A DNA stretch of 64,000 nt from Dictyostelium discoideum (GCA_000004695.1 CM000153.2:4768001-4832000), one strand, 5' to 3'; positions 38,034 to 64,000 are shown, numbered from the stretch's first letter. The notes: generated by a model from the letters alone, not told the origin. Numbers and translations: made by a program.

Positions 38034-38948
38034 TTAAGCTTTAACAATTTTAACAGTTGAAAATGATGGATTTAAAGTTGCAGATACAAAACCAAATGAG
38101 AAAGAATCGCCAGCTTGAAGATTAACAACAAATGGTGGGAAACTTAAATTACCAGTTTTTTGACTTCTTACAATATTCCAAAATTCAGTTGGATTCCAAT
38201 TATCAGAATGAATTTCAATTGATTTAATTGGTGAACTTTCATTATTGGTTAATGTGACTTTATATTGATAATATGTTACACCATTGGCTACCCAATTACT
38301 ATCAGTATCTAATTTATAATTGATTTTTGGTGTTCCAACTGGTGGTGTTGTTGGAGCAACTGTTGGTGTTGGTGTAACTGTTGGAGTAACTGTTGGTGTA
38401 TTACAAGGTTCACCATAATTAAGTTTTGGACATGTATCATATGATTTTAACTAAAAAATTTATTATATTAAATAATTGATTTGAATTAAATTAATGATAA
38501 TAGTTATAATTATAATAATAATAAAAATACATACTGCAACTGTATAATAAAAGTTATTTAAATTGAAGAAACCAACATTACCATTACAAGTAAGTTGAGT
38601 ATTAGTTTGTTTTAATCTAAGATTACCATCACTTAATCTAATACTAAAATCATCAACACGGAATTGATAATCAGCTGCAAATGGTTGAACTAATCCACGA
38701 GAACTACATGTTGTTTCATAGGTTTGTAAATTGTATAATGATTCCCTTAATACAAATTCACCAGATGCAAAAACTAAATTACCTTTATAACCTTCTTGAG
38801 CCAATGATTGATAATGAACACCAGAGATTGAAACTTGAACACATTTTGATGGATCAGCTAATGATGAAAGTAATTGATTACAACTGGTATCACCAAATGC
38901 AACTGATGAAACACCTAATAATGCAACTAATGAATATAATAATTTCAT
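38034..38948 (-). CDS. Secreted two-domain protein, family copy 3 (276 aa); same architecture as 19507..20407. complement(join(38034..38450,38535..38948))
   Basis: Exon 1 is 414 nt, ending FYYTVA|gtatgt. Exon 2 is 417 nt: LKSYDTCPKLNYGEPCNTPTVTPTVTPTPTVAPTTPPVGTPKINYKLDTDSNWVANGVTYYQYKVTLTNNESSPIKSIEIHSDNWNPTEFWNIVRSQKTGNLSFPPFVVNLQAGDSFSFGFVSATLNPSFSTVKIVKA*. Confidence 0.65.
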
Positions 38949-43421: not shown

Positions 43422-44412
43422 TGGGTGGTTTTGTATCTGTTTTAGTGATAAAGTTACTATATTCGCGCCTAATTATTTGAAAATTTAAATTTTAACAGTT
43501 TCCAAAATAAAAAAAAAAACAAAAAAAAAAAAAAAAAAATTTTTAAAAAAAAAAATAATAAAAAAATTTTTAAAAAAAAAAAATGATATAAATTTGGGTT
43601 TAAAATTTTTTGGTTTGATTTGGTATTTATTTTAAAAATTAGTTAACCAATCGATCCGTTTTTTTTTTTAAAAAATAAAATTAAAAAAAATAAAAAGCAA
43701 TCTAGATTTCTTTTTATACAAAATTTATTCCCAACTCATTGTTCTTAAAAATAAAAATCAATTACAAAAAATGAATAGTAAATAGTTAAATTACAAAAAT
43801 AATTATTTATTAAAAAAATAAAATATATATATTTATATTGAGAAATATCCATTCTCAACGAAATTTAGCCAATTGCAATTAATTTTATCCGCAACTGCTA
43901 TAATTAATTCAGATTCAGATTCATGTTTAAATATAGAATTTGATAAGACAACGAGTCAAGGTTCAGATTTTATTAAATTATCAATATCAAATAAAAGTTT
44001 ATATGGTAGACTAATTAAAAGAGCATTGGTTGGTTCAGTTCCAATTACAATTTCAAATGAATTATTAGATAAATCATTAGGTGTAATTAGTGATTCTCAC
44101 ACATCTCAATCATTTATTGGTATTAATGTATCAATTTATAATAAAAATGTAATAATTGATCCAGATTTCTCATTACTTATCAATTCAAATCCATCGACAA
44201 CAAATGATAATGAAAATTTAAAACATATATAAAAACACACAAATAAAAAAACAAATAAAAAACACTAAATAGGGTTTTTTATTTTTTGAATTTAATTTTA
44301 AACAATTTTACATTGGTAATATTTATTTATTTTCTTTTTTTATTGATACATTTTGAAATGACGAAGGAAATAATTTCCTTGGTTGAATTAATTAATTAAT
44401 TAATTAATTTAG

Positions 44413-44787
44413 TTAATGGCATAGTGAGTGACAGCTTCCAGTTGCAATTCCAACAGATGAACTATAACCAACTGAACTTGAGTAGCTTGAGTTATAAGAA
44501 AAACCTGAACCTGAACTTTGATAGCTTGAGCTATATGAATAACTTGAGCCTCCACAAGCAGTAATACATGCAACTGAATTAGAACTCAACGACAATGAAG
44601 CACCTCCATTTGATGAAACAACAGATTTACTAATTTTATTTGGTCTTGAAATTGAAGTAATTGCAGCTATTTATTAGAAATTAAAAAAAAAAAAAAAGTT
44701 TAAAAAAAGAAAGGAACTAATTAGTTTTTTATTTTTTTTTTTTTTTTTAGTATTTTATTTTATTTTGAACATACATAAAATTGTCAT
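44413..44787 (-). CDS. HssA/2C/7E-family-like small Ser/Gly/Tyr/Cys-rich protein (88 aa) with a 13-nt first micro-exon. complement(join(44413..44666,44775..44787))
   Basis: Exon 1 ATGACAATTTTAT|gtatgt. Exon 2 after acceptor taaatag gives [88 protein letters not shown]. The N-terminus MT(I/L)(L/F)S…S and C-terminal C-H are characteristic of the Dictyostelium hssA/2C/7E family. Confidence 0.55.
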
Positions 44788-45696
44788 TTTTTTAAGATTT
44801 TTTTTTTTATTTTATTAATCAAATAATTTATTTTTTGAATTTATCTAATATTGAAATTTATATTTTTAATTTCAATTTATACTTTTTTTTTTTATTAAAA
44901 ATAAAAAATAAAAATAAAAATTAAATTTAATTATTTATTATTATTTATTTACATAAACATATATATATTTATATATGATTAATGGTAGAAATAATATTTT
45001 TTAATTTGCCAATACGTGTGGGAAATTAATTTTAAAATACAATTTTTTAACAACATAATAAAAAAAAAACAATAAGCAGTTCACCACTTAAGTTATTTAT
45101 AGCAGTTTTTTAAAAAAAGCTATTTATAGTAGATTCCAAAATAATACATTGCAACAATATCTAGATAAGTTTGGTAGTTTATACTATCACTATCTGTTTT
45201 GTAATAAAAAAAAAAAAAAAAAAATTATGTCATATTTGGGTAAAAAATTAAAAAAAAAAAAAAAAATAATATTTTTTTATTTATTATCTATACTTGTATT
45301 TTTTATTAATAATAACAATGGTATTCACGAGTTTGGTATTTACCACTATCAATGTGGCACCAAAATTTTTTTTATATTTTTTTTTTTATTTATTAATTCC
45401 TTTTTTATTAGTGAACCGAATAATTTTTTTAGGGAGTGCATTTCAATTTATTCCAAGTTTGTTAATTAATTCTCTTTAATCCTCAATATATTAATAATAA
45501 TTTCATCAATATTTAAATATTTCTTTTTTAAATTTATTATTATTGCTATTTTTTATTTTGGTTTTGATTAATTTTATCTTTAACCATTTTTTTTCACATC
45601 CATGTTTATTTAAAAAAAAAAAAATTCTTCACACTTGATTTTTTTTTTCCCAAATAAGATACTTTTTTAAGCAAAAAAAAATTGTTTATTATTTAT

Positions 45697-45739
<43 letters not shown>

Positions 45740-45820
45740 GTAAACATTTTATTTTTATTTTTTATTTTTTATTTTTTATTTTTTAATTATTTGAAATTTG
45801 TTGATTAGTTATTTTATTAA

Positions 45821-46620
45821 TCATATAGTCTTTGAAAACTGGGAAACTTGAGAAAGGTAATTTAAAATTGATTTTGAATTTGAATTGAATTCTTTAACAC
45901 TTGATAGTTTGTCAATGAATTTTGATATCTTTTCACTATCTTGAATTGAACAATCTTTGAAATAATCTTTATTTAATGGATTTTCAACTTCAATTTTAAA
46001 TATTAAATTTCTTTCATGATCTGAATGAAATTCATTTAAAAATTGGTCAAGTAATTCTACATCTGCTGTTTTAATAATATTCGAATTATAAAAACATTGT
46101 GGAATTAATTCTGCCTTTGAAACATGTTCCACTGAAGATTTTAAACCATTGAAAATGAATTTTGTAGATTCTAATGTTAATGAATCAATTGGAAACATTA
46201 AAACTTGAAATAGCTTGTAAAATCTCTACTTTTTGACCTGCTTTAAAACTTTTTAGATTATGTGATAATGTTTTAAAATCAATTTTTAAATCGGGAATTT
46301 TATAAAATTTGGTTGCAATATTAACGAAATCTTTTAAAATTGAAAGAGAATCTTCTTTTTCAGGATATTCTATTAATATTTTAAAAAAATAAAAACTTGA
46401 AATGATAGAATCTTGATATAGTTCCTTCTTTTGATAACTCTTTTCTAAATAACTATAAACTGATTGTGGAGGATATGATCGATTTCGAAATGTTTCAGTA
46501 ATATAATCACCATCAAAATATAAATTATTTTCATTTTTAACGAATCCTCTATTAAGTAATTCAATTTTAATTTTTTCTGGTATCTTTAACCTAGTTGCAA
46601 GTTTAAAAAATTGTTTTGAT
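45821..46620 (-). pseudogene. Truncated, degenerate duplicate of the middle region (~aa 270-520) of the large ORF at 53852..57148; gene fragment.
   Basis: Minus-strand translation '…IPEKIKIELLNRGFVKNENNLYFDGDYITETFRNRSYPPQSVYSYLEKSYQKKELYQDSIISSFYFFKILIEYPEKEDSLSILKDFVNIATKFYKIPDLKIDFKTLSHNLKSFKAGQKVEILQAISSFN' then a deletion/stop, then 'FPIDSLTLESTKFIFNGLKSSVEHVSKAELIPQ…DCSIQDSEKISKFIDKLSSVKEFNSNSKS' — colinear with 54620..55400. It lacks both the N- and C-terminal thirds. Confidence 0.6.
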
Positions 46621-46847
46621 GTATACTACTATTATTATTATTATTATTATTATTAATTCTTTGATTTCATATATGAGATGATTATTTTTTTTTTTTTTTT
46701 TTTTTCATATTAATACGGCTAAATGATAATGAAAAAAAAAAATGATTGGAAAAGGAATTTATTTTTTTAAACAATAATAATTAAATTGCCTGAATTTTTT
46801 ATTTAAATTTTTTATTTTGAGGATATTGTGGATTAGGATTAATAAAT

Positions 46848-49135
46848 TTACAATTTAGATTGAATATAATTATCTTTAGTGAAAGGACCACCAACTTGGT
46901 TACAAATATTTTCATAGAGATCACCATCCTCCATACCTAAAGGTGAATTCATTAAGTATTCTTCATTACCAAAACCTTTAACTAAAAGCATAGCTTGTTG
47001 AGAGAGATCAGAACATAATTGACCGATTAATTTGATGATAGCTTTAGCTTTACCTTTCTTTAAGTAGTTACTATTTCTAAAGAATTCGAAATCCTCTCTA
47101 ATGATGTAAAGACCATAGAGTTGGCAAAGTTTCTTTAGGATGGAAGCCAATTCGAGATCCTTTTCAGATTGAATTTTTTCAATAAACTTTTGAAGGATGA
47201 TAGTTTCAGTGTGAGCTTTAGCCAAATGAATTAAAATCTCTAAAGATTGATTCCATGCTGTGAATGATTCTTTTGATTTTTTATAATTCTTACTAACGGT
47301 TTGAGCAGATTGAATTAAAAGTTTTGAAGATCTAAATTCCATGCAATCCAAAAGGAATTGGAAAGAGAGTAAATGGTTGTCATCACTACGCATGGTGGTG
47401 ATTGGGTTCATGCCGCTGAGGAGGAGACTGGTGTTTTTGCCCAAATATTTCAATGTGCCAGTGAACTTGTTTCCACTGTACTCCTTCTTGAATTGTGTGA
47501 GTAAATCCTTGGCAACCTGTTGGAGCAATAGTGTGTTATCACCCTCGAATGTTCTACCTACATCGATTGCGGCCACCAATTTACCCAAACGTGAATAGCC
47601 GCCATAACCATGACCGCCACATAATCTTCTCAATTCCATTAGAGACACAGTGGTGAATTGTGAAGTGATTGCTTTGAGACCCGATGCCAATACATGGATT
47701 TCCGCCTCATCAGTTCTCTCTTGGAATCTCTTACCCAAATAGATTTTAATAGCATCGAATGCATAGGTAGATGCAATCATTGGCATGATGGTGAGTTGAT
47801 GTGTTGGGTATGAAAGAATTGGTATCTCTGGTCCTGTTGAGGTTGGTCCGAATTGTAATCTTTTACATGCATAACGGGTGGCAATTATCAAACCAGACTT
47901 TAAAGTACGAGTTGACCCAAAACTAATGGTGATTCTACCAGTGATCATTTGAGCTAAAATATTTGCAAAACGTCTTGATGGATTCTTAATTGGTGATGAG
48001 TAAATTCCATTCTCTACAGACCCAAAACGATCTAATAAATTTGATGCTGGAATTCTAACATTATCAAATTGAATCCAACCATTATCAACACCATGCAAAC
48101 CAAACTTTGAGCCTACATCACCAATTTTCACACCTGGAAGTAAATCTACTCCATTGGATTTACGAATTGGTACTAAAAAACAATGAACCTCATGATCTTT
48201 ACCATCATCCATTATCAATCTTGCAAATACCGATGAAATCTGTGCATGGCCAGCATTACCAATCCACCATTTAGTCGAAGTTCTATAAGGTGTTTGAATT
48301 ATAAATTCATCGGTCTTTGGATCATAAGTAGCAGTAGTCTCTAATGATCTAACATTACTACCATGTCCTAATTCTGTCATTGCAAAACATCCTAATAATC
48401 TTCCTGATTGAATATCTGGTAATAGTTTATGATGTCTCTCTGTTCCTAAATTAAATACTGCGGCACCAAATAAAAAATTATTTACAATTAATTTTGTCAT
48501 TAAACCTATATTTAAAATACAAATATAATTATAAAAATAAATATTAGTATAAACTATTCTCCTCCCAATTTAGAATTAGGATATGTTTTTTATTACTTAC
48601 TTGCATCATCAAATTGTGATACTATATCAATAAATGCTAAAATTTTACTTGGATCATCACGAAGATCTGAAATTTGTATTAAGCCTTTTTCAAAAACACC
48701 ACGAGTAATTTCTAAAACTTGTTTTAATACCAACACTCTATTAGCCTCTTTTGTCATATCCAATTCTTTTACTTTAAAAACTTCACTAGTTGACATAATT
48801 CTATTTAATTCATCTCTAATCTATATAGAAATAAAAATTAAAAATGAAAAAAAAAAAAAAAATTATTATTATTATTATTTTAATATTAATATTAAAATTT
48901 TAATTAATAATAATAATAATAATAATAATAATGGAAAATTTGAAATTATGATATTTACATTATGATTTTCAAAACCTTGAATTGACCAATTTTTTAATTT
49001 ATCTGATAATGATAATTTACTTTTTGAATTTTGATCATTTATTTTTTGTTGAACATCATTATTTGATGGTTTAAATTGTAACATTGCTTTATATCCATCT
49101 CCGATTTTATAAGTTTCAATAAATTGGCCTGCCAC
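46848..49135 (-). CDS. Peroxisomal acyl-CoA oxidase (ACOX), 3 exons, C-terminal PTS1 '-SKL'. complement(join(46848..48505,48601..48820,48959..49135))
   Basis: 'AMTELGHGSNVRSLETTATYDPKTDEFIIQTPYRTSTKWWIGNAGHAQISSVFARL…FLVPIR…GVKIGDVGSKFG…DNGWIQFDNVRIP' is colinear with ACOX1. 'GGHGYGGYSRLGKL' present. Ends …YIQSKL*. Donors are GTAAGT (plus 48595-600) and GTAAAT (plus 48953-58). Whether exon 1 (MAGQFIETYK…) belongs to the gene is less certain. Confidence 0.8.
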
Positions 49136-50680
49136 TTTTTTTTTTTTTTTTTTTCCTTTTATGTCTGTATATATATATTTTTTTATTTAAATTAGTATGT
49201 GTGTTGTAAAAAAAAATTAAAAAAATAAAAATAAAAATAGTGATTAAAATTTCTACTTTTACTAATTTTTTTTTTTTTTTTTTTTTTTTTTTTGGTTTAA
49301 ATTGTATATTTTAATAATTTATAATGAGTATTTTTTTTATTTTTTTAATTTATTATTTTTTTATTTTTTTATTTTTTTATTTTTTTATTTTTTTATAAAA
49401 AAAAGTAGTTTGAGTGTTAATAGATTTAAAAGTTAATTAACTTTTTGTTAATGCGGAATGTTTTTTTTTTTTTTTTTTTTTTATTCGAGTTTTCAAAAAT
49501 AAAAAATTGGGGTGAATAAATAATTTTTTTAATTTTCTTTTTTTTAATAAATCATGCAGTTTCAAACCCAATTATGGGAATTTTTATTATTTTTTTTATA
49601 TTTTTTGGAATAATACAATGGATTTTGTTTTAAAGAAAAAAAAAAGTAATTAAAAAAAGGTTATTAAAAAAATGTAGAAAATTATTTTTACATACTTTAT
49701 AAATTGTTTTAATAATTTTTTTTTATTTTTTTTATTATTATTATTTACACAATACACAACAACACACAAAAAACAAAAACTAACAAAAATTAAAAAAAAT
49801 ATAAAAAAATAAAAAAAAAATAAAAAAAAAAAAATTATGTAAAGCGAAGGAAACCTTACACTTTAAAAATAAAAAAAAAAATCAAAAAATGATGGGTGTT
49901 TTATGGAAACATACCATTATTTTTAAAAAAAAAATAATTTCAAACAGATATTTTGATTAAAAAAAATAAAAAAAAAAATAAAAATTTAAAAAAAAAAAAA
50001 AAATCGTTTTTGTGACTCAATTTTTTGCAGATGGGCGAGATTAACAAAAATTTAAATAAAAAAAAAATAAAAATTTAAAAAAAAAAAAGTGATTTGCCTG
50101 GGTTTATGTCTCTTTATTATAAATTTCAACCATATCAAAAAAAAACACTTAAAATAAAATTAAACATTGAATGTTTAAAGATATTTTTCATTGGTGTCAT
50201 GTAACCCCATTTTTAAAAAGAATGAATAAAAAAGTTTTTTTTTTTTTAATTCGTTCCTTTTTTTTAATTTATATTATTATTTTTTTTTTTTTTTTTTTTT
50301 CTTTTCTAGACATAACGGTTAAAAAAATAAAAAAAAAAAAAAAAGATTTTATCATTTTGTAAAAATAAAATATAATAATAAAATTAAAACTGGTTAAATT
50401 GGTGGGATTCAAAAAAAAAAAGAAGTTCAGATTTATGGCAAAAAAAAAATAAATAAAATATTAATTTTATATTTTTTATATTTTTTATTCTGGCAAATAA
50501 TTATTATTTTCCAGGTGTGGTTAAAATATTCAAAGAATTTTTTTTTTTGAAAATATCATTTTTCAATTAATTGTTTTCAAAAAATGAGAATAAAGATTTG
50601 TTTTTTTTTTTTTTATTTTTTTTTTTCAATTTTTTTATAAATTTTTTTTTTTTTTTTTTAATTAACAAACATAAAATAAC

Positions 50681-50870
50681 ATGATTAATATATTAAAGGA
50701 CATTCTTTATAAATCATATAGCTATTTAGCATTTCCTTTTTTTTATTTGGGTTGGGCAATAAAAAACTCTTATCAACCTAATAAAACTATAAAAGAAGAA
50801 GAATCAAAACCACCCAAATATCCAAAAGAATGGAGTGATTTATTTATCCATTCTTATAATAATGAACATG

Positions 50871-50903
<33 letters not shown>

Positions 50904-50961
50904 ATTTTTTTTTTTTTTTTTAAAATTCTAAGATATTAAATGTTTAATTAATTTAATTAAA

Positions 50962-51000
<39 letters not shown>

Positions 51001-52247
51001 GGAAAAAGTTTTAGAAATAATTCAAAAGGAACCAAATAGTATAAATTCAGTAGATTCATTAAATTGGACACCTTTACATGTTGCTGTTTCAAATAAATCA
51101 ATTGAAGTTGTTACTTTATTATTAGAAAGAAATATTGAAATTTCAATTAAAAGTTTGTATTGTACAATTATAATTAATTCTTTTTTTTTTATATTTTTTT
51201 TTTAATTTTTTTTTTAATTATTAACTTTTTTTTTTTTTTTTTTATAATTTTTAAATAATAAAGGATATACAGCATTTCATATTGCAGCATGTAATGGTGA
51301 TTTAAATATAATTGAAAAGATGATTACAATGAATAGAGTGCCAAATGGTAATATATTATCAAATGATATGGAGACAAGTTTATTTTTATCAATTACAAAT
51401 AATCATTTTGAAATTTCAGAAAAGATAATGGACTATTATCAAAGTAGTATGAATAGTAATGAATTTAAAAAGATGATTGATCAATTTAATGTCCATGGTG
51501 TATCACCATTGATAATGTCAGTATTAAGAAAGAATTTAAAGATGATAAAGAAATTGATTGAAGAGGGTGATGCAGATATCAATAGTTTTAAAAAGGATAA
51601 TTCAACATCACTACATTGTGCAGCAATAATCGATTTCACCGAAGCAATTGAGTATCTATTAGATATTGGTGGTATTGAACTAATGAATTCAATTAATAGA
51701 TATGGTAATTCACCAATTCATGAAGCTGCAATTAAAGGTAACTTTAAATCAATTCAAACTTTTATAAATCAATTAAAAAAGATAATAATTAAAAATAATT
51801 GTAGTGATGGTGATAGTGATAAAGATAAATTAAATTTATTATTATTGGAAATTATTGATAAAAAAGATAAAGATGGTTCAACACCGTTACATTTATGTTG
51901 TAATTGTGTAAATTCTGATAATATTGAAAATAATTTAAAATCATGTAAAGTTTTAATTGAAGAAGGTGGTGTTCAAGTAAATGGTATCGATAGTGGTAAT
52001 GCAACAGCTTTGCATATATTAGCATGTGTTGGTGAAGATAAATCATTACCATTGGTTAAATATTTCCTTAGTATTGGTTCTGATCCAACAATTGAAAATA
52101 AATATGGGTGGACACCAATTCATCAAGCTTATAATAATAAAAATATTCAAATTTATCAATTACTTTTAGATCATTTAAAATTAACAAATTCAACATATAA
52201 ATTAGATATTGAAAAGAAAAGAGTATTTCAATCATCATCAACATCAA

Positions 52248-52304
<57 letters not shown>

Positions 52305-53260
52305 TATTATTAAATAAAGAAGAATTAAAATTAAAAGGAATTGAAAGATTAAAAAATGTAATTAATGGAATTAAAAAAGGTGAATTTAAAAATGTAATTG
52401 TATTAAGTGGTGCAGGTATAAGTGCCAATGCAGGTATACCACCATATAGAACTAAAGATGGATTGTTGGCAAAGAATAAACAATTTTCATTCTCAATGGA
52501 GATATTAGAGAAACATCCAGATGTATTTTATCAAGCGATAAGAGATCACTTTTATCCCATTATTAAAGCATCAAATGATAATGATCGTGATGATGGTATT
52601 AGTGCAGGTATTAAATCAACGAAATCCCATTATTTCATTAATGATTTAAATGAAAAGTATGGATGTTTATTAAGAAATTATACTCAAAATGTTGACCCTT
52701 TACAAGAGAGAACAGGCACTCCTACCGATAAGATCATTCATGCTCATGGTTCATTCGATCAATGGTATTGTACAGTTTGTCAAAAACAATACACTGATAA
52801 GAGTGATAGAATTTGGAGAGAAATTGGTAGAGGTGGTTTACCATTTTGTACGGAACCTGAATGCAGACATGTCATCAGACCAAATGTTGTGTTCTTTGGT
52901 GAACCACTCTCTCAAGACTTTAGAGTAAATACAATCACAGATTTTAGAAAAGCTGATCTATTAATTGTAATGGGTACAAGTTTAATAGTTTATCCATTCG
53001 CTTCACTTGTTAATGATGTTGCTTCTGATGTTCCAAGATTACTATTCAATTTCGAATCAACTGGTCCATTTGTAAATACAATGGATTTAGAAAGAAAGGA
53101 AAAATTAAAACAACAACAAGAAAATGAAAGTGGTGAATCATCAAATGATAATGATAATAATGAATTAATAGTTGAAGCAAGAGGTAATAGAGATATAGTA
53201 ATTTTAGGTGATTGTGATAAAGGTGTTGATTATTTCAATACTCTATTTAATTCATTTTAA
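50681..53260 (+). CDS. Sir2-family NAD-dependent deacetylase with an N-terminal hydrophobic segment and ankyrin repeats (ankyrin–sirtuin fusion). join(50681..50869,51002..51152,51264..53260)
   Basis: Sirtuin core: 'VIVLSGAGISANAGIPPYRT' (GAGIS…GIP(D)FR), 'TQNVDPLQERTG' (QNIDxL), 'HGSF', Zn tetrad 'CTVCQ…FCTEPEC', 'RPNVVFFGE'. Upstream ankyrin repeats (LNWTPLHVAVSNKSIEVVTLLLERN; YTAFHIAACNGDLNII; GSTPLHLCCNCVN; ATALHILACVGED; GWTPIHQAYNN). Exon 1 encodes a hydrophobic stretch (YLAFPFFYLGWAI). Donors are GTTTGT. Confidence 0.75.
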
Positions 53261-53340
53261 ATAATAATTAAATAAAAAAAAAAAAAGTAAAAAAAAAAAA
53301 TAAAAGAATAAAAAAAAAAAAAAAAAAAAAAAAATATTAT

Positions 53341-53640
53341 TGTTTAATTTTACTCAACCAAACACTGCATCATTTTACTCAGTCCAACCCCACATTATTT
53401 TATAAAAAAAAAAAACAAAATATCTTCAGTAGTTTTTTTTTTTTCACAGATAATGATATCATTTTTATAAAATTAAAAATATATTATTGTTTAATTTTAC
53501 CCAATCCAACCCCACATCATTTTATAAAAAAAAAAAAGAACAAAATATCTTCGGTAGTTTTTTTTTTCACAAATAATATCATTTTGATAAAATTAAAATA
53601 AAAATATCTTCTTATGTTTTTTTTTTTACAAACAATAACA
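53341..53640. repeat. ~125-bp tandem repeat (~2.5 copies) between the sirtuin 3' end and the large-ORF 5' end
   Basis: Unit 'attattgtttaattttac(t/c)caa(c/t)c(aa)a…ccccacat(t/c)attttataaaaaaaaaa…caaaatatcttc(a/g)gtagtttttttt…cac(ag)a(t)aat(g)atatcattt(t/g)ataaaattaaaa' recurs at 53341, 53466 and partially at 53590. Confidence 0.7.
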
Positions 53641-53851
53641 TTTTCATAAAATCCCAAAAAAATTAAAAATTAAAAATAAAAAAAAACATTTTTTTGACCC
53701 AGATATTTATTTTTGAATTATTAGGATAATAACAAAAGATATTTTTTTGTTTTTTATTTTTTTTTTTTTTTATTTTTTTTTATACTTTAAAAAGCTTGTT
53801 TTTTTTTTTTTTTTTCATTCCAATTTTTTTTTTTACACTAAAGATTATAAA

Positions 53852-56800
53852 ATGAATTTACACACAAATAATAATAATAATAATAATAATTATGTAGATG
53901 AAAATCTATTTTGGAAAGTTTATAAAAATTTGTTTATTAGAAATTTAATATTTTATAAAATCATTTCAACAACAGTCATTTATAAATATGATGATGATGA
54001 TAGTCTTAGTAGTGGTAAATTTATTGTACCTTCTGATAGAGTACAATTTAAAAATATAATTTCTTTATCATGGATTGTTAAAAGAAATTTATGGTCATTA
54101 TTAAAGTATAAATTAATTAGTAATGAAGAATTAATTATAAAGAAAAAAGCAATAGAATTACTATTACAAGAATGTAAACATGATAAAGATTTATTAAAAC
54201 TAATCTATCAAAACAAGTATTATCAAATGAATCAAATCGATTTAATTTTAAATTCAATTAAACATTCAAATTTAATGGCATTAAAATTATTCATTGAAGA
54301 ATATAATTTACCGACAAATAATAATTCAATGGATATGGCATTAGAAATTGCAAGTAAACAATATTATAGAAATGAAGAAGAACAAAAACAATCATTTGAA
54401 GTTTTTCAATTTTTTTGGGAAAAGAAAAAAGATACTCTTCAATGCACTCAATCAGAGTTATTCAATCAAAATAGAAATTATAATGCATATATGTTACAAT
54501 TAATTTTAAATAATCCAAGTTTATATGGTGAATCTTTACAATCAAATAATAATAATAATAATAATAGTAGTAGTAATAATATTGGTTTAATGACATCAAG
54601 AGAATTTTTTAATCTTGCAGTTATGTCAGTAATACCTGAAAAAATTAAAATTGAATTACTTAATAGAGGATTCGTTAAAAATGAAAAAAGTATATATCGT
54701 GATGGTGATTATATTGCTAAAACAATTCAAAAGCAATCACCATATCTTCCAAAATCAATTTATAGTTATTTAGAAAAGAGTTATCAAAAGAATGAATTAT
54801 ATGAAAATCGTACCATTTCAGTTTTTTATTTTTTTAAAATATTAATTGAATATCCTGAAAAAGAAGATTCTCTTTCAATTTTAAAAGATTTCGTTAATGT
54901 AGCATACAAATTTACAGATTTAGAAATTAGATCATATAATACATTATCACTTAATCCAAATAGTTATAAAGCAGGTCAAAAAGTAGAAATTTTACAAGCT
55001 ATTTCAAGTTTTAATTTTACATTGAAAATTAAGATAATTGAGTCACTATTTCCAATTGATTCATTAACATTAGAATCTACACGATTCATTTTCGATAGAT
55101 TAAAATCTTCAATTGATAATGCTGGAACAATGAAACATGTTTCAAAGGCAGAATTAATTCCACAAAGTTTATATCATTTGAATATTATAAAAACAGCAGA
55201 TGTAGAATTACTTGACCAATTTTTAAATCACTTTCATTCAGATGCTGAAAGAAATTTAATATTTAAAATTGATGATGAAAATCCATTAAATAAAGATTAT
55301 TTCAAAGATTGCTCAATTCAAGATAGTGAAAAGATATCAAAATTCATTGACAAACTATCAAGTGTTAAAGAATTCAATTCAAATTCAAAATCATTTTTAA
55401 ATTGTTTAAAATCAAAACTTTTACCAATTTCGAGTGAATTATATATTTCAAGTTTATTAAAATTTAAAGAAACATCACGTAAACAAACCTATGTACACGC
55501 AAAAGTTTTAGATGAAACATTGTGTGATTTCTTTTCAGAAAAGAATAATTTTAAATCAAATTTAACATCATTTATTAAATTCATTAATTTTAGAAGTTTA
55601 TCAATTACATATCTCGTTGAAAAAGTTTTATTTTCCAATGATTTTGAACTTATAGAATTATTATTAAATACAATATGTAATAATAATAATAATTATGGCG
55701 CAGGTATTATAATGGTTCCAGTTTCATTTAAAACATCTAATCCTGACATAATTAAATTAATCATTTCGAAAAGTAATTGGCATAAATTATTTGATTTTAA
55801 AGGTTTAATCGATACAGTTATTAGTGATAGCAATGTTTGTAATATTAGTAATCCAAATACCGATTCTCAAACCATTGAATTAATTGAAACTGTTATTGAT
55901 TTTTTACATTCAAATAAAATTTATCAAAGAAATTCAAAAGAAGGATTTGGATTTGGATTTGGATTTGGAACAACGAATCAACAAGAAAATCACACTGAAA
56001 AAACAATAATTTCCAACGATGCAACAAAGATTGCACTTTTAAAAAAGAAATCCATTAAAATTTTACAACTTTTATTAAAATATAAAAATTTGTTTGATTG
56101 GGATTCACAATTATTTCCAAAACTTCCAAAATTACCAACAATTCAATTGGATGATGAAATACTTCCAAAATCAGATAAACCAATAATGTCAATTTATGAA
56201 CAACAAGAATTAGAAGACCAAGATTTATATCAATCTAGAAGAAGAAAGCCAAAAAATAAACATGGTGGTGGACGTGGTAGAAGAAGAATTGATACCTATA
56301 ATGACACTGCTTATGATGGCACCAATAACAACATTCCCTATATCGGTAGTATTGGTGGTAGTGTTTTTGCAAGTACTGAAGATTCAGTCAATGGTGGTGG
56401 TAGTGGTTTTTATAGTAGTAGTAGTAGTATTGGTAGTATTAGTAGTATTAGTAGTATTAGTAGTATTAGTAGTAGTAATAATAATAATGAATTAGGTAGT
56501 GATCAAAGTCAATTTATTCTAGGTGGTAATTTCACAGGTTTTAGTGGCAATTATCAGAGTAAAAGTAAAGATAAAAAAAAGATTAGAAATCTATACAATA
56601 CCAATTTCCTTGATAAATTTAAAACACATCAAGCTCAATCAATATTTGATACAATGGACCAATTATTCACTAGAAATTATACGTTTTCATTTGCATACAC
56701 GAGTGATAGTGTTTTTCAAGATTCAATATATCATTCAATAAAGAATAGAAGAATTGATGTAATTGAAAAATTAATAACTATTCAAATGTTTACAGATAAT

Positions 56801-57148
56801 CATGCAAAATTAATTTATTCAGATTTTTTAAAAAGAATTATTAGAAATGATGACGGTGTTGATTTAGTAACTTTTAAATACCTTTTTTCTCATAGATTCC
56901 TCAAGATATTCAGTACAGAGTTTTTACAAACAATGTCACAAGAATTATTAATTTGTGCTGTTTCAGAATGTTGTTTTCATCTTTGTCATTGGTTATTGTC
57001 AACAGATAATCCATGTAATGTATATGTTGAATTCTTGCCATTTAAAACGACCTACATTTTAAATGTCGAGAAAAAATTATCATATTGTGCATCACCAGTT
57101 TTCAAAGATTATATGATGAAAAAAATAAAACCTTTTATTAAATACTAA
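53852..57148 (+). CDS. Large (1099 aa) lineage-specific protein of unknown function; the founding full-length member of a locally multi-copy, fragmented family (see pseudogene features). Poly-N, GFGFGFG and (SIS)n low-complexity tracts.
   Basis: Uninterrupted ORF. Probable ATG at 53852 (MNLHTNNNNNNNNYVDE…); the track ORF starts upstream at 53747. No recognisable catalytic or transposase motifs by eye. Three partial copies lie elsewhere in the window. Confidence 0.6.
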   Translation: MNLHTNNNNNNNNYVDENLFWKVYKNLFIRNLIFYKIISTTVIYKYDDDDSLSSGKFIVPSDRVQFKNIISLSWIVKRNLWSLLKYKLISNEELIIKKKAIELLLQECKHDKDLLKLIYQNKYYQMNQIDLILNSIKHSNLMALKLFIEEYNLPTNNNSMDMALEIASKQYYRNEEEQKQSFEVFQFFWEKKKDTLQCTQSELFNQNRNYNAYMLQLILNNPSLYGESLQSNNNNNNNSSSNNIGLMTSREFFNLAVMSVIPEKIKIELLNRGFVKNEKSIYRDGDYIAKTIQKQSPYLPKSIYSYLEKSYQKNELYENRTISVFYFFKILIEYPEKEDSLSILKDFVNVAYKFTDLEIRSYNTLSLNPNSYKAGQKVEILQAISSFNFTLKIKIIESLFPIDSLTLESTRFIFDRLKSSIDNAGTMKHVSKAELIPQSLYHLNIIKTADVELLDQFLNHFHSDAERNLIFKIDDENPLNKDYFKDCSIQDSEKISKFIDKLSSVKEFNSNSKSFLNCLKSKLLPISSELYISSLLKFKETSRKQTYVHAKVLDETLCDFFSEKNNFKSNLTSFIKFINFRSLSITYLVEKVLFSNDFELIELLLNTICNNNNNYGAGIIMVPVSFKTSNPDIIKLIISKSNWHKLFDFKGLIDTVISDSNVCNISNPNTDSQTIELIETVIDFLHSNKIYQRNSKEGFGFGFGFGTTNQQENHTEKTIISNDATKIALLKKKSIKILQLLLKYKNLFDWDSQLFPKLPKLPTIQLDDEILPKSDKPIMSIYEQQELEDQDLYQSRRRKPKNKHGGGRGRRRIDTYNDTAYDGTNNNIPYIGSIGGSVFASTEDSVNGGGSGFYSSSSSIGSISSISSISSISSSNNNNELGSDQSQFILGGNFTGFSGNYQSKSKDKKKIRNLYNTNFLDKFKTHQAQSIFDTMDQLFTRNYTFSFAYTSDSVFQDSIYHSIKNRRIDVIEKLITIQMFTDNHAKLIYSDFLKRIIRNDDGVDLVTFKYLFSHRFLKIFSTEFLQTMSQELLICAVSECCFHLCHWLLSTDNPCNVYVEFLPFKTTYILNVEKKLSYCASPVFKDYMMKKIKPFIKY

Positions 57149-57227
57149 ATAACAAAATAAAAAATAAATCATAAAATAAAAAAAATTAAATAAATTTAAA
57201 ATACACGTAATATTATCCTCACACATT

Positions 57228-57268
<41 letters not shown>

Positions 57269-57284
57269 CAAAAAAATATATTTG

Positions 57285-57326
<42 letters not shown>

Positions 57327-57894
57327 ATTAGAAATTACAACAAAAACAACCATTTGAAATTTTTCAATATTAAGTTAAAAATTTTCTTGAGTATTGAAGT
57401 TAAAATATAATTTTTGTCACTGCCCAAAATATAATACTTTGTACAAAAAAAAAAAAATTTCACCCTTTCAAAACTGTTATATTTTAATAAAGATTGGTTT
57501 GTTTTGAAAATAATATTAAATTTTGGTCAAAAAAAAAAAAACTCATTAAAACGAAAGTTTTTTTTTTTTAAACCAAAAAAAAAAAAAAAAAAAAAATTAC
57601 TTATTGATTAATAATAGTTTATACATTAAAGGTAGGGATTTTTCACTGTAAAACTGGATAAAAAGTTTTTTGATTATCTATATCCAATTTTTTTTTTTTT
57701 TTTTAAAGCTATTGTTACTGCCATTTAAGATATTTGCAATCGTTTTTTTTTTTGCGTCATTGTGACCACTAAATCCATTTTCCATTTAATTCAAAAAAGT
57801 TTGCTAGGTAAATTAAAAATATAATGTTTAAAAAAATTAAATTGCATAGGAAATTTATTTTTAATGGAATTTTTTTATTTATTAAAAATCTATT

Positions 57895-58186
57895 TTAATA
57901 TTTATAATGGCATCTTGGTTCTGGACGACATGGTGGACATGGACGACAAATTGGACGTGGTGGTGGACATGGATGACAACTATTCCAATGGTGGCTACCC
58001 CATCCCGATGTTTCATTTGAACCAAATGAACCACTTGAACTACCAGTTTCAATTGATGAAACACTTGATTTCAAAGAACCAGTGCTTAATGATGATAATG
58101 ATGCTTTTAAAAATTATTTATTAATAAAATAATAAATTTAAATAATTTTTTTTTTTTTAGGAAAAAAACTTACAAAATAGGGTCAT
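57895..58186 (-). CDS. HssA/2C/7E-family-like small protein (73 aa) with a 13-nt first micro-exon and a Cys/Pro-rich C-terminus. complement(join(57895..58103,58174..58186))
   Basis: Exon 1 ATGACCCTATTTT|gtaagt. Exon 2 after acceptor ttttaaaag gives [73 protein letters not shown]. Same gene architecture and N-terminus as 44413..44787. The exon is the local GC-rich island 57900-58100. Confidence 0.5.
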
Positions 58187-58674
58187 TTTAAAATTTTAAT
58201 AGTTTCTTGTTTAAAAATTAGAGTTTGATTTAATATTTTTTTTTTCTAATTTGGTTACAATTTATAGTTTTTTTTTTTAAAAAAAAGAATAGAAAAACAA
58301 ATAATTTTTTAATTTTATTTTTTAAAATCATACTTTTTGTTTTTTCATTTTTATTTTTTTTTATATCAAAAAACACAATCTCCCCCCATTATATTTTTCT
58401 ATTTGACTTGTGAATTATTTATTCATAAATGATTACTTGTTATATTAATTATTATTATAAATGGGCCTTTGGATTTTGAAATATCAAGAATTCTTAAAAT
58501 AAAAAAGTCTTAAAAAAAAAAAAAAAAAATTTATGGCCACACCAAAAAAGATAATTTTTTTTTTTTTTTTAATCTCAATTGTTTTATTTCAATTTTTATT
58601 TTTAAAATATTATTGTAAAGGTTCACCTTCTCCAACACCGTATAAACTTGAATTATATCAAGATCCTATCATTT

Positions 58675-58770
58675 CAGTTTTTTATTTTTAAAATATTAAT
58701 AGAATATCCTGAAAAAGAAGATTCTCTTTCAATTTTAAAAGATTTCGTTAATATTTCATCCGAATTCCCA
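58675..58770 (+). pseudogene. Short (~95 bp) fragment copy of the large ORF 53852..57148 (region encoding FYFFKILIEYPEKEDSLSILKDFVNI).
   Basis: 'tcagttttttatttttaaaatattaatagaatatcctgaaaaagaagattctctttcaattttaaaagatttcgttaatatt' is >90% identical to 54818-54900. It shares the derived 'gttaatatt' state with the 46.3-kb fragment rather than with the full gene. Confidence 0.55.
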
Positions 58771-60017
58771 ATTTTGAAATTAGATTATATAACACTTTTC
58801 ACCGGAGAAAATACCTAAGAAATTTTACTATTTTGTGAGAAATTAAACTACCGCAAAAACTCATATTTTAAGAAACGACAGTATAATTTAATAAAATTTA
58901 AAACAAACTAATATCAATTTCTAATAAATATTTAATCACACTTTATTATTAAATTATCATAAAATAATAAAAAAGAATCTGGCCATAAAAAAAATATTAA
59001 TGTAAATTAAAAATTGATAAAATCTAATATTATTTAATAAAAATTGAATATTAATTTGTCATTAAATTATAAAAAATTTATTGATTTACAACAATTAATA
59101 GGAAATAATACTATTGTAATTTCTCATTTTTTAAAACATAAAACTATAGTTTAATATATGATATTATATATTATTAAAAACTTTAATAAAATAATAAAAA
59201 ATAAATAAAAAATATTAAAATATAAGAATTTTTATTTTTTTAAATAATTTTTTCCTTATTTATTATAAAAATTAATCAAAAAATAATATTATTTAGTGAA
59301 TAATAATAATTTAATAATCATTTATTTATAATTTAAATATTAAAAAAATACTAATAATAAAATTTATTAAATATTAATTAATAATTTTAAAATATGTTAA
59401 AAAAAAAGAAATTTTCTATATTACTAATTTTTTAAATAAAAAGAAATAATTAATATTAAAGCTATTTTGATTTAATTATTATTTGAAACTAACTAAATTT
59501 ATTGGACATTGTTGTGCCAAAAAAGCAAAATTATTTTTGTAAATTTTTTTTATTTTTTTTTTTTTATTTTTTTTTTTTTGTATCTTATTTTTATTAATTC
59601 AATTCCTATATTTTTTAAAAATAATAAAAATATATATAAATATTTTTTTTTTTTTAAAATTTATTATTTTTTATATAAAAAAAGATAAATTTTATTAATT
59701 TTATTATTTTATATCCTATTTTTTTGGGATTACATATATTTTAAATAAATATGTTGAATATTATAAAATTTTCCAATTTATAATTTATTTTATTATTTTT
59801 TAAACATCTTATTCTCCAAAAATTAAAATTGATTACTTAAATCACCAGTGATGATTTTCCATAAGATTCAAGATTTTTTTATATATTATATTTTAATAAA
59901 ATATCCTATTTTCTAATAATTATTATAATTATTTTTAAAAAAAAAATAACCCGAATATCTTTTAGTATTAATTAAATTTTAATAAAAAATGCTATTTATT
60001 TTTTTATAATAAGTTTG

Positions 60018-60130: not shown

Positions 60131-60605
60131 ACATTTACAGTTCCATTTTTATTAAACATCAAATCCTGAATTAATTATATTAATCATTTCAAATAGTGAT
60201 TGGCACCTATTCTTTGATTTTAAAAGTTTAATCGATACTGTTATTAATGATAGTATTGTTTGTAATGTTAATTGTAACACAGATTCTCAAACCATTGAAT
60301 TACTTGAAACTATTATTAATTTTTTACATTCAAAATTAAATGATCAAACGAAAACAAACAATTTTATTCAACTTAGGATTGGAACGATTTTATCATATGA
60401 AGCAACGAATACTGTATTTTTAAAAAAGAAATTAATTAATATTTTACAATTATTATTATTCCCAATTATTATTATTCCCAATTATTATTATTCCCAATTA
60501 TTATTATTCCCAATTATTTCCAGAACTTCCAATTTTACCAGCAATAAATTACCAAGAAAAAATAAAATTGAAACAAGATCCCTTTAAGAAGAAAATTAAA
60601 AAATA
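60131..60605 (+). pseudogene. Fragment copy of the C-terminal third of the large ORF 53852..57148 (region NPDIIKLIISKSNWHKLFDFKGLIDTVISDS…LLKKKSIKILQLLL), with an internal 4x tandem 16-bp repeat.
   Basis: Translation 'NPELIILIISNSDWHLFFDFKSLIDTVINDSIVCNVNCNTDSQTIELLETIINFLHSKLNDQTKTNNFIQLRIGTILSYEATNTVFLKKKLINILQLLL…' is colinear with 55730..56100. It sits immediately after an (ATA)31 microsatellite. It contains 'ttcccaattattatta' x4 (60463..60527). Confidence 0.55.
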
Positions 60606-63900: not shown

Positions 63901-64000
63901 AATATGCAACAGCTGCAAATATTTTATCCGCTGGTAATTTACTATTAACTAAATAATAAACTGTAAACATAAATATTGAAATAATTGTTGGAATTGATTG
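60905..64000 (-). CDS. ABC transporter, ABCC (MRP) subfamily; 3' portion only (NBD1, TMD2, NBD2). The 5' end lies beyond the window edge.
   Basis: NBD1 Walker A 'GPVGSGKSS', signature 'LSGGQKQRVAIARA', Walker B 'IYILDD'. NBD2 'GRTGSGKSSLLLALFR', 'NWSQGQKQLIGLGRALL', 'ILVCDEATASVD'. A long TMD2 lies between them. Stop at 60905. Confidence 0.85.
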   Translation of the reverse strand, partial: QSIPTIISIFMFTVYYLVNSKLPADKIFAAVAYLNIIRVPFTFLPYGYNIYIQFKVSIERVVNFLNMDEINQGDDKNNEINVNVCDQQKQQQTDIGIYMDNTTFSWAIKPQTNPPPPRTTPSNDKSSPSGNNSNNEKKEVQVSFSLKNTSCQVKEKGSLLMVIGPVGSGKSSFCQALLGEMELENNGSLRVVGSIAYVSQSAWIMNASLKDNILFGKEYNKERYEMVLNCCALLPDLALFPQGDLIEIGERGINLSGGQKQRVAIARAVYSDSDIYILDDILSAVDAHVGKHLFYNCIKGILKEKIVVLATNQLNYCPYSTQTLILKTGGEVEQYDTFENIISTINSAYGNSSLFSELLKQYAHMAGDSDKDSDEIVDDEMIKSKENNNDLYDGKLTTIEEREEGSVSFKHYMYYVTAGGGFLFLIALLGYCIDTSTSTFTNWWLSNWSSKHTSTGINNNNSSSSNSISSSSSYIIDSLSSLNINEDGDIENAGEFLGVFIAIGVLTVLLIIVRTIVFFEYSIRATTEIHKRLFWSILRAPMWFFDTVPLGRILNRFTRDTDIVDMLLTNSLNQFLNFSTNCIAILVIISIATPWLLLPMTPIIILFYFIQYFYRRTSIQIQRIESITRSPIFSHFAETLNGVITLRAFRKMGENVLKNQALLDDNNKCYLTLQAMNQWLGLRLSVLGNLITLLSCIFITVDRSSIAIASVGLSISYTLSLTTNLNKATQQLAELETKMNSIERISYYTENVPQEPDQIIESNRPPMGWPSLTNSNHTPPIIFENVVMSYRQGLPAVLKGISFEIKAGEKIGICGRTGSGKSSLLLALFRIVELSSGRIIIDGLDISKIGLKDLRSQLAIIPQEPVMFTGTLRSNLDSLSEHTDSELWDVLKEIQLYEHVKKVSVADEGLDLRVNDNWSQGQKQLIGLGRALLKKPKILVCDEATASVDSLSDELIQRIIREKFKDAIILTIAHRLNTIVESDRIMVLDSGSIVEFNKPSILAQNENSLFNWLIDETGTQNSQYLRSLIKH

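Follow-up and report, generated by a model that had tools for sequence, protein, structure and literature searches.

Two loci with the hssA/2C/7E micro-exon architecture on chromosome 4 of Dictyostelium discoideum

The hssA/2C/7E genes of Dictyostelium discoideum correspond to the Pfam family PF05710 ('Coiled'), to the 'HssA/B-like proteins' of UniProt (e.g., 57, 62, 9, and hssB), and to the 96-gene sigN-like family. A previous study showed that the first exon contributes an ORF of just 13 nt in 89 of the 96 sigN-like genes (Vicente et al. 2008). The 13-bp first exon was also described together with a cup-specific clade, in which DDB_G0286675 is among nine hssA-like genes and DDB_G0276687 (beiE) was called 'an hssA/7E/2C related gene' (Kin et al. 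2018). Published data place the onset of this nine-gene subfamily at terminal differentiation, exclusively in cup cells, and its members together make up about 30% of the transcripts there. As for function, six single knock-outs of family members gave no phenotype, and a frame-shifted copy of hssA was reported to be still active; antibodies to SigN group 2 proteins do produce a phenotype. In the parts of the proteomic literature consulted, the proteins 7E, hssl25, and hssl30 were detected by mass spectrometry. SRCP1 (serine-rich chaperone protein 1), which has 88 aa, suppresses polyglutamine aggregation, and acts as a protein, was assigned to this same large class, whose members are small and under developmental control (Wu et al. 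2021). All of this, the family with its 13-nt first exon as well as the extreme cup-cell expression of one of the genes treated below, is already published, and nothing here is newly discovered.

The window analysed here is a stretch of 64,000 nt from chromosome 4 of D. discoideum AX4, in which a sequence-only reading had placed two spliced genes of this type, gene 1 (44413-44787) and gene 2 (57895-58186), both on the minus strand. Both two-exon models were reproduced by direct reading and in silico splicing (Table 1), and the two loci are very likely genuine genes that code for members of the Dictyostelium-specific hssA/2C/7E (sigN-like) superfamily. No other hssA-family locus was found in the window by tblastn with family members as queries. 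The neighbouring spliced models are exact AX4 proteins, namely ACOX (Q54LF1), CBM49 (Q54LF5), and SAPLIP C (Q54LG2). A tRNA scan of the window found none. A scan for bacterial-type promoters and terminators near gene 1 returned fewer hits than shuffled sequences and was set aside, because such a scan is inapplicable to a eukaryote.

Table 1. Features of the two genes and of the large-ORF family around them, in window coordinates
Feature	Position	Strand	Remarks
Gene 1, candidate polyadenylation signal AATAAA	44339-44344	-	about 70 nt 3' of the stop; putative function
Gene 1, exon 2 coding, 254 nt	44413-44666	-	TAA stop 44413-44415 included; translation, PF05710, homologs, ortholog P0011
Gene 1, intron, 108 nt, phase 1	44667-44774	-	GTATGT...AATAG; direct reading, in silico splicing
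Gene 1, exon 1 coding, 13 nt	44775-44787	-	ATGACAATTTTAT; ATG at 44787; M T I L and first base of Ser5
Gene 1, TATA-like box	44873-44881	-	TATAAATTG; 86 nt 5' of ATG; read directly; putative promoter element
Frameshifted large-ORF fragment (aa 248-519)	45854-46622	-	between ACOX and gene 1
Intact large ORF, 1098 aa from first ATG	53852-57148	+	source family of the fragments; ORF list
Block duplicated at paralog locus DDB_G0285737/DDB_G0293890 (L006)	57161-58541		about 1.4 kb, around gene 2
Gene 2, candidate polyadenylation signal AATAAA	57878-57883	-	12 nt 3' of the stop; putative function
Gene 2, exon 2 coding, 209 nt	57895-58103	-	TAA stop included; exact protein match, GC content, published expression
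Gene 2, intron, 70 nt, phase 1	58104-58173	-	GTAAGT...AAAAG; direct reading, in silico splicing
Gene 2, exon 1 coding, 13 nt	58174-58186	-	ATGACCCTATTTT; ATG at 58186; M T L F and first base of Ser5
Gene 2, TATA-like box	58258-58266	-	TATAAATTG; 72 nt 5' of ATG; kept in the L006 paralog; putative promoter element
Short large-ORF fragment (aa 325-371)	58678-58815	+	about 490 bp 5' of gene 2
Second colinear large-ORF fragment (aa 628-687)	60156-60332	+	comparison with the 53852-57148 product

Both genes have the architecture of the family, 13//254 with an intron of 108 nt in gene 1 and 13//209 with an intron of 70 nt in gene 2, each intron being in phase 1, and the same TATA-like nonamer lies upstream of both. 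The products have the predicted lengths of 88 aa (MTILSAITS...GSCHSLCH) and 73 aa (MTLFSSLSS...RCHYKY) and begin with MT[IL][LF]S. They share the size and composition of the family (below 120 aa, Ser/Gly/Cys-rich), with 36% Ser and 10% Gly in gene 1, and 25% Ser, 14% Pro, 8% Cys, and 8% Gly in gene 2. The donor was correctly described as GTA(T/A)GT (GTATGT in gene 1, GTAAGT in gene 2). Two details of the earlier description need amendment: the exon-1 consensus is right in its 13-nt length, but position 12 in gene 1 is A rather than T, and an intron of about 100 bp applies to gene 1 but not to gene 2. The combined 19-nt start/donor motif, ATGACNNTNTTNTGTANGT, occurs exactly twice in the 64 kb and in none of 100 shuffles, a partly circular test, since these two sites had supplied the pattern. 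Family hits were obtained only in D. discoideum, D. citrinum, D. firmibasis, and D. dimigraforme, so the family is Dictyostelium-restricted.

In both genes the acceptor is the sole choice that combines an open frame with a preceding AG. An acceptor of gene 1 at 44663 was rejected, being without the AG and giving a product absent from the protein collection; the product of the gene 1 ORF alone is absent from it as well. The ORF list holds only partial readings at either place: a TTG/GTG-started ORF at 44413-44595 (-) for gene 1, and, for gene 2, a TTG/GTG-started ORF at 57895-58074 (-), an overlapping one at 57882-58064 (-), and an antisense one at 57864-58124 (+). The GC-rich island that had been ascribed to gene 2 is real, with 45-47% GC at 57900-58050 versus 11-26% in the flanks, and is due to the codons of the Cys/Pro-rich tail of gene 2.

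Fragments of the large-ORF family had been noted beside the two genes, and three of them were located (Table 1); neither the 1098-aa large ORF (MNLHT...) nor a 125-aa fragment ORF is annotated as such. Old and automated gene models joined the fragment next to gene 1 to ACOX, and nothing colinear with the interval of its insertion (45861-46800, about 0.94 kb) exists in strain ACTFIR. On the other side, the duplicated block around gene 2 is 96% identical to the L006 locus over 57703-58541 and 88% over 57161-57634. This insertion missing from ACTFIR and the duplication of about 1.4 kb at 88-96% bear out the description of a dynamic subregion.

Gene 1 is a canonical member of the hssA/2C/7E family. 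Its product matches PF05710 with 47.7 bits (E 2.9e-12) over residues 1-82, where the gathering cut-off is 21.4, and this match, the aligned homologs, and the 13-nt first exon uphold the type to which it had been assigned. Its identity is 61% to HssA/B-like protein 57 and 52% to HssA/B-like protein 62, and reaches 81% to hssB over an aligned part that covers 42% of the query. Over residues 1-30 it agrees fully with HssA/B-like protein 62 and shows four differences from HssA/B-like protein 57 and from hssB. The N-terminal block of the family, MT/SIL S..TSIS...K.SKS..S...G..LSMGSNSVAC, is present with L replacing M in SLSM. Gene 1 thus resembles the family in its 13-nt first exon, phase-1 intron, size (88 aa), N-terminus, GSNSVAC-type core, Ser/Gly/Tyr-rich middle, and Cys/His end, and differs from it in SLSL for SLSM and in the terminal CHSLCH, which takes the place of C-x-C-[HN].

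The product of gene 1 was not found in a collection of 15 billion proteins, although other AX4 hssA proteins are present there, and it is missing from NCBI, UniRef, and eukprot-derived collections. In the ACTFIT assembly (2025-era annotation) no gene was called at this position, where the DNA is 100% identical. The 2008 list contains an entry that fits, sigN164, given as chromosome 4, 13//253, intron of 107, and 88 aa (Vicente et al. 2008); it agrees with gene 1 (13//254, intron of 108 nt, 88 aa) on the presumption of an off-by-one convention in the table. DDB0187091 is Q54LE4, and therefore DDB0187084 lies within a few genes of Q54LE8, the product of gene 2. From this we infer that gene 1 is very probably the sigN164/DDB0187084 of that list.

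Such an absence would also be expected if gene 1 were an unexpressed or decaying copy, i.e., an incipient pseudogene whose ORF is intact only through young duplication and which was dropped by curators or pipelines for that reason. Its off-consensus SLSL and CHSLCH, as well as the true pseudogene fragment that adjoins it, would suit this reading. However, gene 1 is intact in its ORF and ATG, in both splice sites (donor and acceptor), and in its TATA box and AATAAA, and small micro-exon genes are generically overlooked by automated callers. Strain ACTFIR carries a syntenic, intact ortholog beside ACOX, which is 93% identical to gene 1 and has the same exon 1 sequence. Between the two there are four synonymous and four non-synonymous changes, which is a weak sign of constraint, along with a single 6-nt indel that keeps the frame; neither a stop nor a frameshift occurs. 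The flanking DNA of ACTFIR is about 10% diverged, yet the ortholog retains the frame and the CHSLCH end. In the intron the donor and acceptor are kept while the interior has a 10-nt indel and substitutions, and exon 2 is the more conserved of the two. We therefore regard decay as an unlikely explanation, and gene 1 is treated here as an intact member of the family.

The spliced product of gene 2 matches exactly that of AX4 DDB_G0286675 (Q54LE8, XP_637613.1), whose records label the protein 'hypothetical/uncharacterized'. Gene 2 is this annotated gene, one of nine in the recently amplified subfamily to which beiE also belongs. At 90% clustering its product falls into a cluster of ten near-identical D. 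discoideum proteins, among them that of beiE (DDB_G0276687), to which it is 99% identical. Variation among the paralogs lies mainly at residue 41 (S in gene 2; Y, N, H, or Q in the paralogs) and in the last few residues. Against the L007 paralog, codon changes in gene 2 are synonymous in seven cases and non-synonymous in three, a sign of coding constraint; two of the seven fall in the micro-exon, which reads ATGACTCTCTTTT in that paralog. The splice sites are conserved, whereas the introns (73 and 85 nt in paralogs) and the flanks have diverged in sequence. The reading frame is kept in all ten paralogs, in-frame Pro insertions included.

According to the supplement of Kin et al. (2018), DDB_G0286675 reaches 50,520 TPM in cup cells, against 606 in spore, 263 in stalk, and 4 in vegetative cells, with 698 at hour 24. 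It is the highest of the nine cup paralogs, which range from 20,700 to 50,500 TPM in cup cells (Kin et al. 2018), though TPM values of paralogs that are 96-99% identical are confounded by multi-mapping reads. Developmentally regulated expression in the prestalk lineage counts among the traits of the hssA family, and the published tables confine expression of gene 2 to hour 24 and cup cells. Gene 2 is a member of the cup-cell hssA-like clade, shares with it this published expression pattern, and differs from it in nothing substantial.

The relation of gene 2 to the hssA family as a whole is less close: it had been called an hssA relative, which holds for its architecture and for its placement in the clade of Kin et al., while by sequence the relation is only marginal. 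PF05710 matches its product with 19.8 bits (E 0.0015) over residues 1-37 only, 1.6 bits below the cut-off of 21.4, and a Pfam search at E<=10 gave no other family. A local HMM scored 7.8 bits; of 20,000 composition-matched shuffles, 184 attained as much (empirical p about 0.009). What gene 2 shares with the family is the exon-intron architecture and a similar stretch of about 37 residues at the start, where the N-terminal block is colinear but degenerate and without Cys. The SVAC core is absent. The C-terminal half, which is Gly/Ser/Tyr-rich or hydrophobic in the family, is replaced in gene 2 by an unrelated Cys/Pro/His tail with six invariant Cys, two CxxC motifs, ten Pro, and several His.

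These differences raise the question of whether the subfamily of gene 2 descends from hssA at all or is instead chimeric or independent, with only the leader (micro-exon, intron phase, and serine-rich N-terminus) in common and this leader joined to an unrelated Cys/Pro-rich module. The restricted, sub-threshold Pfam match would agree with this, as would a search with the gene 2 profile against 1.84 billion representatives, which returned the D. discoideum cluster of gene 2 and no other relatives for the tail; the one extra hit (P0029), a calpain-like repeat protein, was rejected as a chance match. No 73-aa entry on chromosome 4 exists in the 96-gene list (Vicente et al. 2008), and the 'hypothetical/uncharacterized' label of the AX4 records would also suit this reading. 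An hhalign comparison aligned just 12 residues (6.5% probability), the two small family alignments being too shallow to inform. On the other hand, the 13-nt first exon with a phase-1 intron is rare and specific and is common to the great majority of family genes, and ten out of ten members of the gene 2 group match PF05710 at E<=1 and nothing else (best E 3.5e-4). The motifs MT[IL][LF]S...KS.VSS...GSN are colinear in gene 2 and the family, and the cup clade was taken as hssA/7E/2C-related by Kin et al. A chimeric or independent origin seems rather improbable, and a gene 2 of chimeric origin would be a derivative of the family all the same; we retain gene 2 as a member of the superfamily.

Structure searches added no relatives, since PDB searches were empty or gave antibody hits at chance level. 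The AlphaFold2 model of the gene 2 family has no fold (pLDDT 59, pTM 0.17) and essentially no secondary structure. The keratin-associated high-sulfur and small proline-rich proteins of animals are cross-linked Cys/Pro-rich structural proteins. In composition and in short repeats of the CRP/CPP type they resemble the tail of gene 2, and they share with it massive expression in a terminally differentiating cell type; the likeness is compositional only, with no homology detected and with gene 2 lacking a signal peptide. The earlier description of the products as secreted/structural-type proteins is to be read as a proposal only: no hydrophobic signal-peptide core was found in either product by a heuristic Kyte-Doolittle scan, in which the maximum 9-residue mean was 1.79 in gene 1 and 1.14 in gene 2.

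We propose, with low confidence, that prestalk-derived cells may produce both proteins in large amounts and that both may be small, of low complexity, and intrinsically disordered. For gene 2 a structural role is favoured, in which the Cys/Pro tail may form disulfide cross-links or bind metal in the material of the cups, between which the spore mass is held. A redundant SigN-like matrix role or an SRCP1-like role in proteostasis would be favoured for gene 1; SRCP1 is likened to it by size (88 aa), serine-rich composition, and description, not by sequence. We would only tentatively, and with considerable doubt, extend this to a picture in which the nine-gene cup subfamily is a distinct protein type (hssA leader with Cys/Pro/His tail), possibly forming disulfide-cross-linked or metal-binding cup material that would let the cups keep the spore mass on the stalk, and gene 1 is an intact hssA member, conserved between strains, that is gone from the catalogues.

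The peptides would be incidental if the loci worked mainly through their RNAs. Transcripts of the cup genes are extraordinarily abundant, and those parts of the life-cycle proteome table that were consulted do not list the protein of gene 2. Such a role is nevertheless highly improbable in view of the seven-to-three excess of synonymous changes in gene 2 paralogs, the frame kept across ten of them despite Pro insertions, the family proteins seen by mass spectrometry in the sources consulted, the effect of SigN group 2 antibodies, and the action of SRCP1 as a protein. That the two are ORFs by chance, with accidental GT/AG sites, is refuted by the database matches and has next to no probability: both products are short and of low complexity, and AT-rich DNA has GT...AG pairs in plenty, but gene 2 is an exact curated protein with published expression, gene 1 lies far above the Pfam cut-off, the start/donor motif is absent from the shuffles, and the splice sites are conserved in orthologs and paralogs.

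Two coding genes of the hssA/2C/7E superfamily therefore remain the preferred reading of these loci. An ORF track drawn from ATG to stop misses a class of about 100 Dictyostelium genes, which the start/donor motif allows a reader of raw sequence to recover. Since gene 1 is missing from the catalogues, family censuses and expression studies that are built on them may overlook it. For the cup subfamily to which gene 2 belongs, which makes up roughly 30% of the cup transcriptome, function is a question already recognised in the literature.

Two minus-strand genes of hssA/2C/7E type, gene 1 (window 44413-44787) and gene 2 (57895-58186), had been proposed in a sequence-only reading, each with a 13-nt first exon and with products of 88 and 73 aa; both models were reproduced base for base by minus-strand reading and in silico splicing. 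The proposed intron of about 100 bp suits gene 1 and not gene 2 (108 and 70 nt), and the proposed exon-1 consensus fails at position 12 for gene 1. Alternative acceptors either broke the frame or lacked an AG. At both genes the mechanical ORF list holds only TTG/GTG-started partial ORFs and one antisense ORF, so an ATG-to-stop model is blind to them. Both are TATA-preceded two-exon genes: TATAAATTG, a putative TATA-type promoter element, lies 86 nt (gene 1) and 72 nt (gene 2) 5' of the ATG, and AATAAA, the likely polyadenylation signal, follows soon 3' of the stop codon. The start/donor motif common to both, ATGACNNTNTTNTGTANGT, has no other site in the window and appeared in 0 of 100 shuffles, although the test has some circularity; a tblastn search of the window with a query set of 15 family proteins gave these two members and no more. 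The GC island was confirmed (45-47% G+C at 57900-58050 versus 11-26% in its surroundings and ~22% in the window) and corresponds to the Cys/Pro codons of gene 2 exon 2.

Coordinates of the two genes and of neighbouring features in the window
Feature	Position	Strand	Remark
Gene 1 exon 1	44787-44775	-	13 nt, ATGACAATTTTAT
Gene 1 intron	44774-44667	-	108 nt, GTATGT...AG
Gene 1 exon 2	44666-44413	-	spliced product 88 aa
Gene 2 exon 1	58186-58174	-	13 nt, ATGACCCTATTTT
Gene 2 intron	58173-58104	-	70 nt, GTAAGT...AG
Gene 2 exon 2	58103-57895	-	spliced product 73 aa
Large ORF, intact copy	53852-57148	+	one intact copy in family
Large-ORF fragment	45854-46622	-	two frames, frameshifted
Large-ORF fragment	58678-58815	+	
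Large-ORF fragment	60156-60332	+	
MKLLYSLVALLGVSSVAFGD gene, first	19949-20407	-	
MKLLYSLVALLGVSSVAFGD gene, second	22110-22625	-	
MKLLYSLVALLGVSSVAFGD gene, third	38010-38948	-	276 aa, intron 38534-38451
Saposin-B-type cluster	23930-26959	+	three genes
108-aa gene	43771-44232	+	
Acyl-CoA oxidase (ACOX)	46848-49135	-	ATG at 49084
Read-through part of two ACOX models	45854-46848	-	
Long ORF	60905-63970	-	1021 aa

The gene 2 product exactly matches DDB_G0286675 (EAL64093.1, XP_637613.1, Q54LE8), whose database name is only 'hypothetical/uncharacterized'. Its 90%-identity cluster comprises ten D. discoideum proteins, including DDB_G0276687 (beiE), which differ mainly at residue 41 and the last few residues; none of the six Cys varies, nor does either Trp, most His are constant too, and two CxxC motifs are present. 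Residue 41 (codon 57991-57993; GWG-X-HHW) is the one hypervariable position, being S, Y, N, H or Q among the ten paralogs. According to a previous study, beiE is a late cup-cell marker, validated by promoter-lacZ and called 'an hssA/7E/2C related gene' (Kin et al. 2018, PMC6198379). In the supplement of that study, transcription of gene 2 is a feature of cup cells at terminal differentiation (698 at hour 24; TPM by cell type: cup 50,520, spore 606, stalk 263, vegetative 4), with eight paralogs at 20,748-41,446 TPM in cup cells. By our own sum of the published values these nine genes reach ~303,000 TPM together, the per-gene split being uncertain since they are 96-99% identical and reads multi-map.

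Paralog comparison supports the spliced coding model of gene 2. One paralog locus (DDB_G0285737/DDB_G0293890) aligns with the window at 96% identity across 57703-58541 and at 88% across 57161-57634; a second, older one (L007) is alignable with the gene 2 locus in coding sequence only. The L007 micro-exon, ATGACTCTCTTTT, differs from gene 2 exon 1 by two changes, both synonymous; GT and AG are retained in gene 2 and its paralogs (introns of 70, 73 and 85 nt), and seven synonymous and three non-synonymous codon differences separate gene 2 from the L007 paralog. For a function of the loci at the RNA level, hssA offers a precedent (Kin et al. 2018, PMC6198379), but the synonymous excess among the gene 2 paralogs argues against it.

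Family membership of gene 2 is marginal by sequence. It scored 19.8 bits against Pfam PF05710 (cut-off 21.4), over residues 1-37 only; PF05710 was the sole Pfam match for all ten paralogs (best E 3.5e-4), and against a local HMM of 11 hssA proteins gene 2 scored 7.8 bits, which 184 out of 20,000 composition-matched shuffles equalled or exceeded. An hhalign comparison of two shallow alignments, the gene 2 subfamily versus hssA, was uninformative. Common descent is argued mainly by the 13-nt exon, the phase-1 intron and the colinear degenerate N-terminal motif, and gene 2 is treated here as a putative divergent derivative, having the family gene architecture and failing the formal Pfam test. The claimed hssA/2C/7E similarity holds for gene 1 (PF05710, 47.7 bits), and for gene 2 in architecture but not in Pfam score. 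No relatives of the Cys/Pro/His tail of gene 2 were found among 1.84 billion representatives, where the single extra match was due to chance, and none in the PDB; AlphaFold2 gave the product no fold (pLDDT 59, pTM 0.17).

Gene 1, judged by its sequence, is a canonical hssA/2C/7E member. Its N-terminal 30 residues equal those of HssA/B-like protein 62, with four differences each from HssA/B-like 57 and hssB; overall identity is 61% to HssA/B-like 57 and 52% to HssA/B-like 62, and relatives also occur in D. citrinum, D. firmibasis and D. dimigraforme. The best match (93%) is the syntenic ortholog in the strain assembly ACTFIR, flanked, as in the window, by ACOX and a ~1000-aa gene. Micro-exon, donor and acceptor are identical there; the intron has a 10-nt indel, and exon 2 shows four synonymous and four non-synonymous changes, one in-frame 6-nt indel and no stop, a weak but consistent sign of coding constraint.

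The proposal of a dynamic subregion was borne out: the window holds one intact copy (1098 aa from its first ATG) and three fragments of the multi-copy large-ORF family, and ACTFIR has nothing colinear with 45861-46800, where the first fragment lies. The ACTFIR-absent fragment and the duplicated blocks therefore show recent insertion and duplication in the region. The old AX4 ACOX model (UPI00004E332D, 897 aa) and that of the assembly ACTFIT (928 aa) run on into this pseudogene fragment and are thus fused gene models, whereas Q54LF1 (667 aa), the model now used for AX4, is free of the read-through. Q54LF1 starts at the ATG at 49084, but its frame continues 5' of that codon without a stop as far as a GTG at 49135, and models in other strains and species have 683-685 aa, ~17 aa more; the AX4-like sequence may have lost its upstream start codon. 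ACTFIT (GCA_054883475.1), a recent assembly, represents a near-identical strain (99.7% identity over 21 kb); ACTFIR (GCA_054859385.1), also labelled D. discoideum, is 84-96% identical over syntenic DNA, far below that value. Exact AX4 matches were obtained for the reconstructed products DDB_G0286811 (t-SNARE-domain protein), SAPLIP C (Q54LG2), Q54LF5 and Q54LF1, which together with the gene 2 match put the window on AX4 chromosome 4. The three paralogous genes beginning MKLLYSLVALLGVSSVAFGD (mutual DNA identity 83-91%) form a local family, the third being the CBM49 'extracellular matrix protein' Q54LF5; the saposin-B-type cluster encodes proteins of 333 aa (Q54LG3) and 157 aa (SAPLIP C) and one further; and the long ORF running towards the window end carries ABC-transporter motifs and seems to belong to a gene for an ABCC-type transporter.

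The sequence-only reading was essentially right in observation and interpretation. Earlier work already covers the gene family, its micro-exon architecture and gene 2, and the annotation status of gene 1 is the only remaining point of interest. Its exact product was not found in a 15-billion-protein collection, in which no AX4 protein is >61% identical to it; ACTFIT DNA is 100% identical at 44413-44900, yet carries no gene call. A previous study catalogued 96 sigN-like genes, of which 89 have a first-exon ORF of 13 nt, and its table lists sigN164 (DDB0187084) on chromosome 4 as 13//253, intron 107, 88 aa (Vicente et al. 2008, PMC2257962). This entry fits gene 1 (254-nt exon 2, 108-nt intron) if table lengths are end minus start, as the table's exon 2 values imply when compared with the main text. 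In a STRING-derived table DDB0187091 corresponds to Q54LE4, four accessions away from gene 2 (Q54LE8); three accession slots (Q54LF2-LF4, XP_637607-637609) separate CBM49 from ACOX, and the window holds the ~1000-aa gene, the 108-aa gene and gene 1 between them. The DDB0187091 assignment and the three-slot match place DDB0187084 in the gene 1 neighbourhood. Our inference is that the original annotation already included a prediction of gene 1, which is probably sigN164. The 108-aa gene, predicted in the ACTFIT annotation and without a Pfam match, is convergent with gene 1, 180 bp separating the two stop codons; the corresponding position in ACTFIR carries no gene call.

Both products are small and rich in serine, with disorder predicted for each, and a heuristic hydropathy scan found no hydrophobic signal core in either, which counts against a classical secretory route. 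A structural role is favoured for the Cys/Pro tail of gene 2, with its six invariant Cys and two CxxC motifs; it would form a bulk part of the cup material by binding metal or by disulfide cross-linking. Its analogues in animals, high-sulfur and proline-rich proteins, are alike in composition only. Family single knock-outs gave a phenotype in 0 of 6 cases, which counts against any strong single-gene role. For gene 1 the favoured proposals are a redundant part in the matrix or in adhesion, like that of SigN, or protection against aggregation, like that given by SRCP1.
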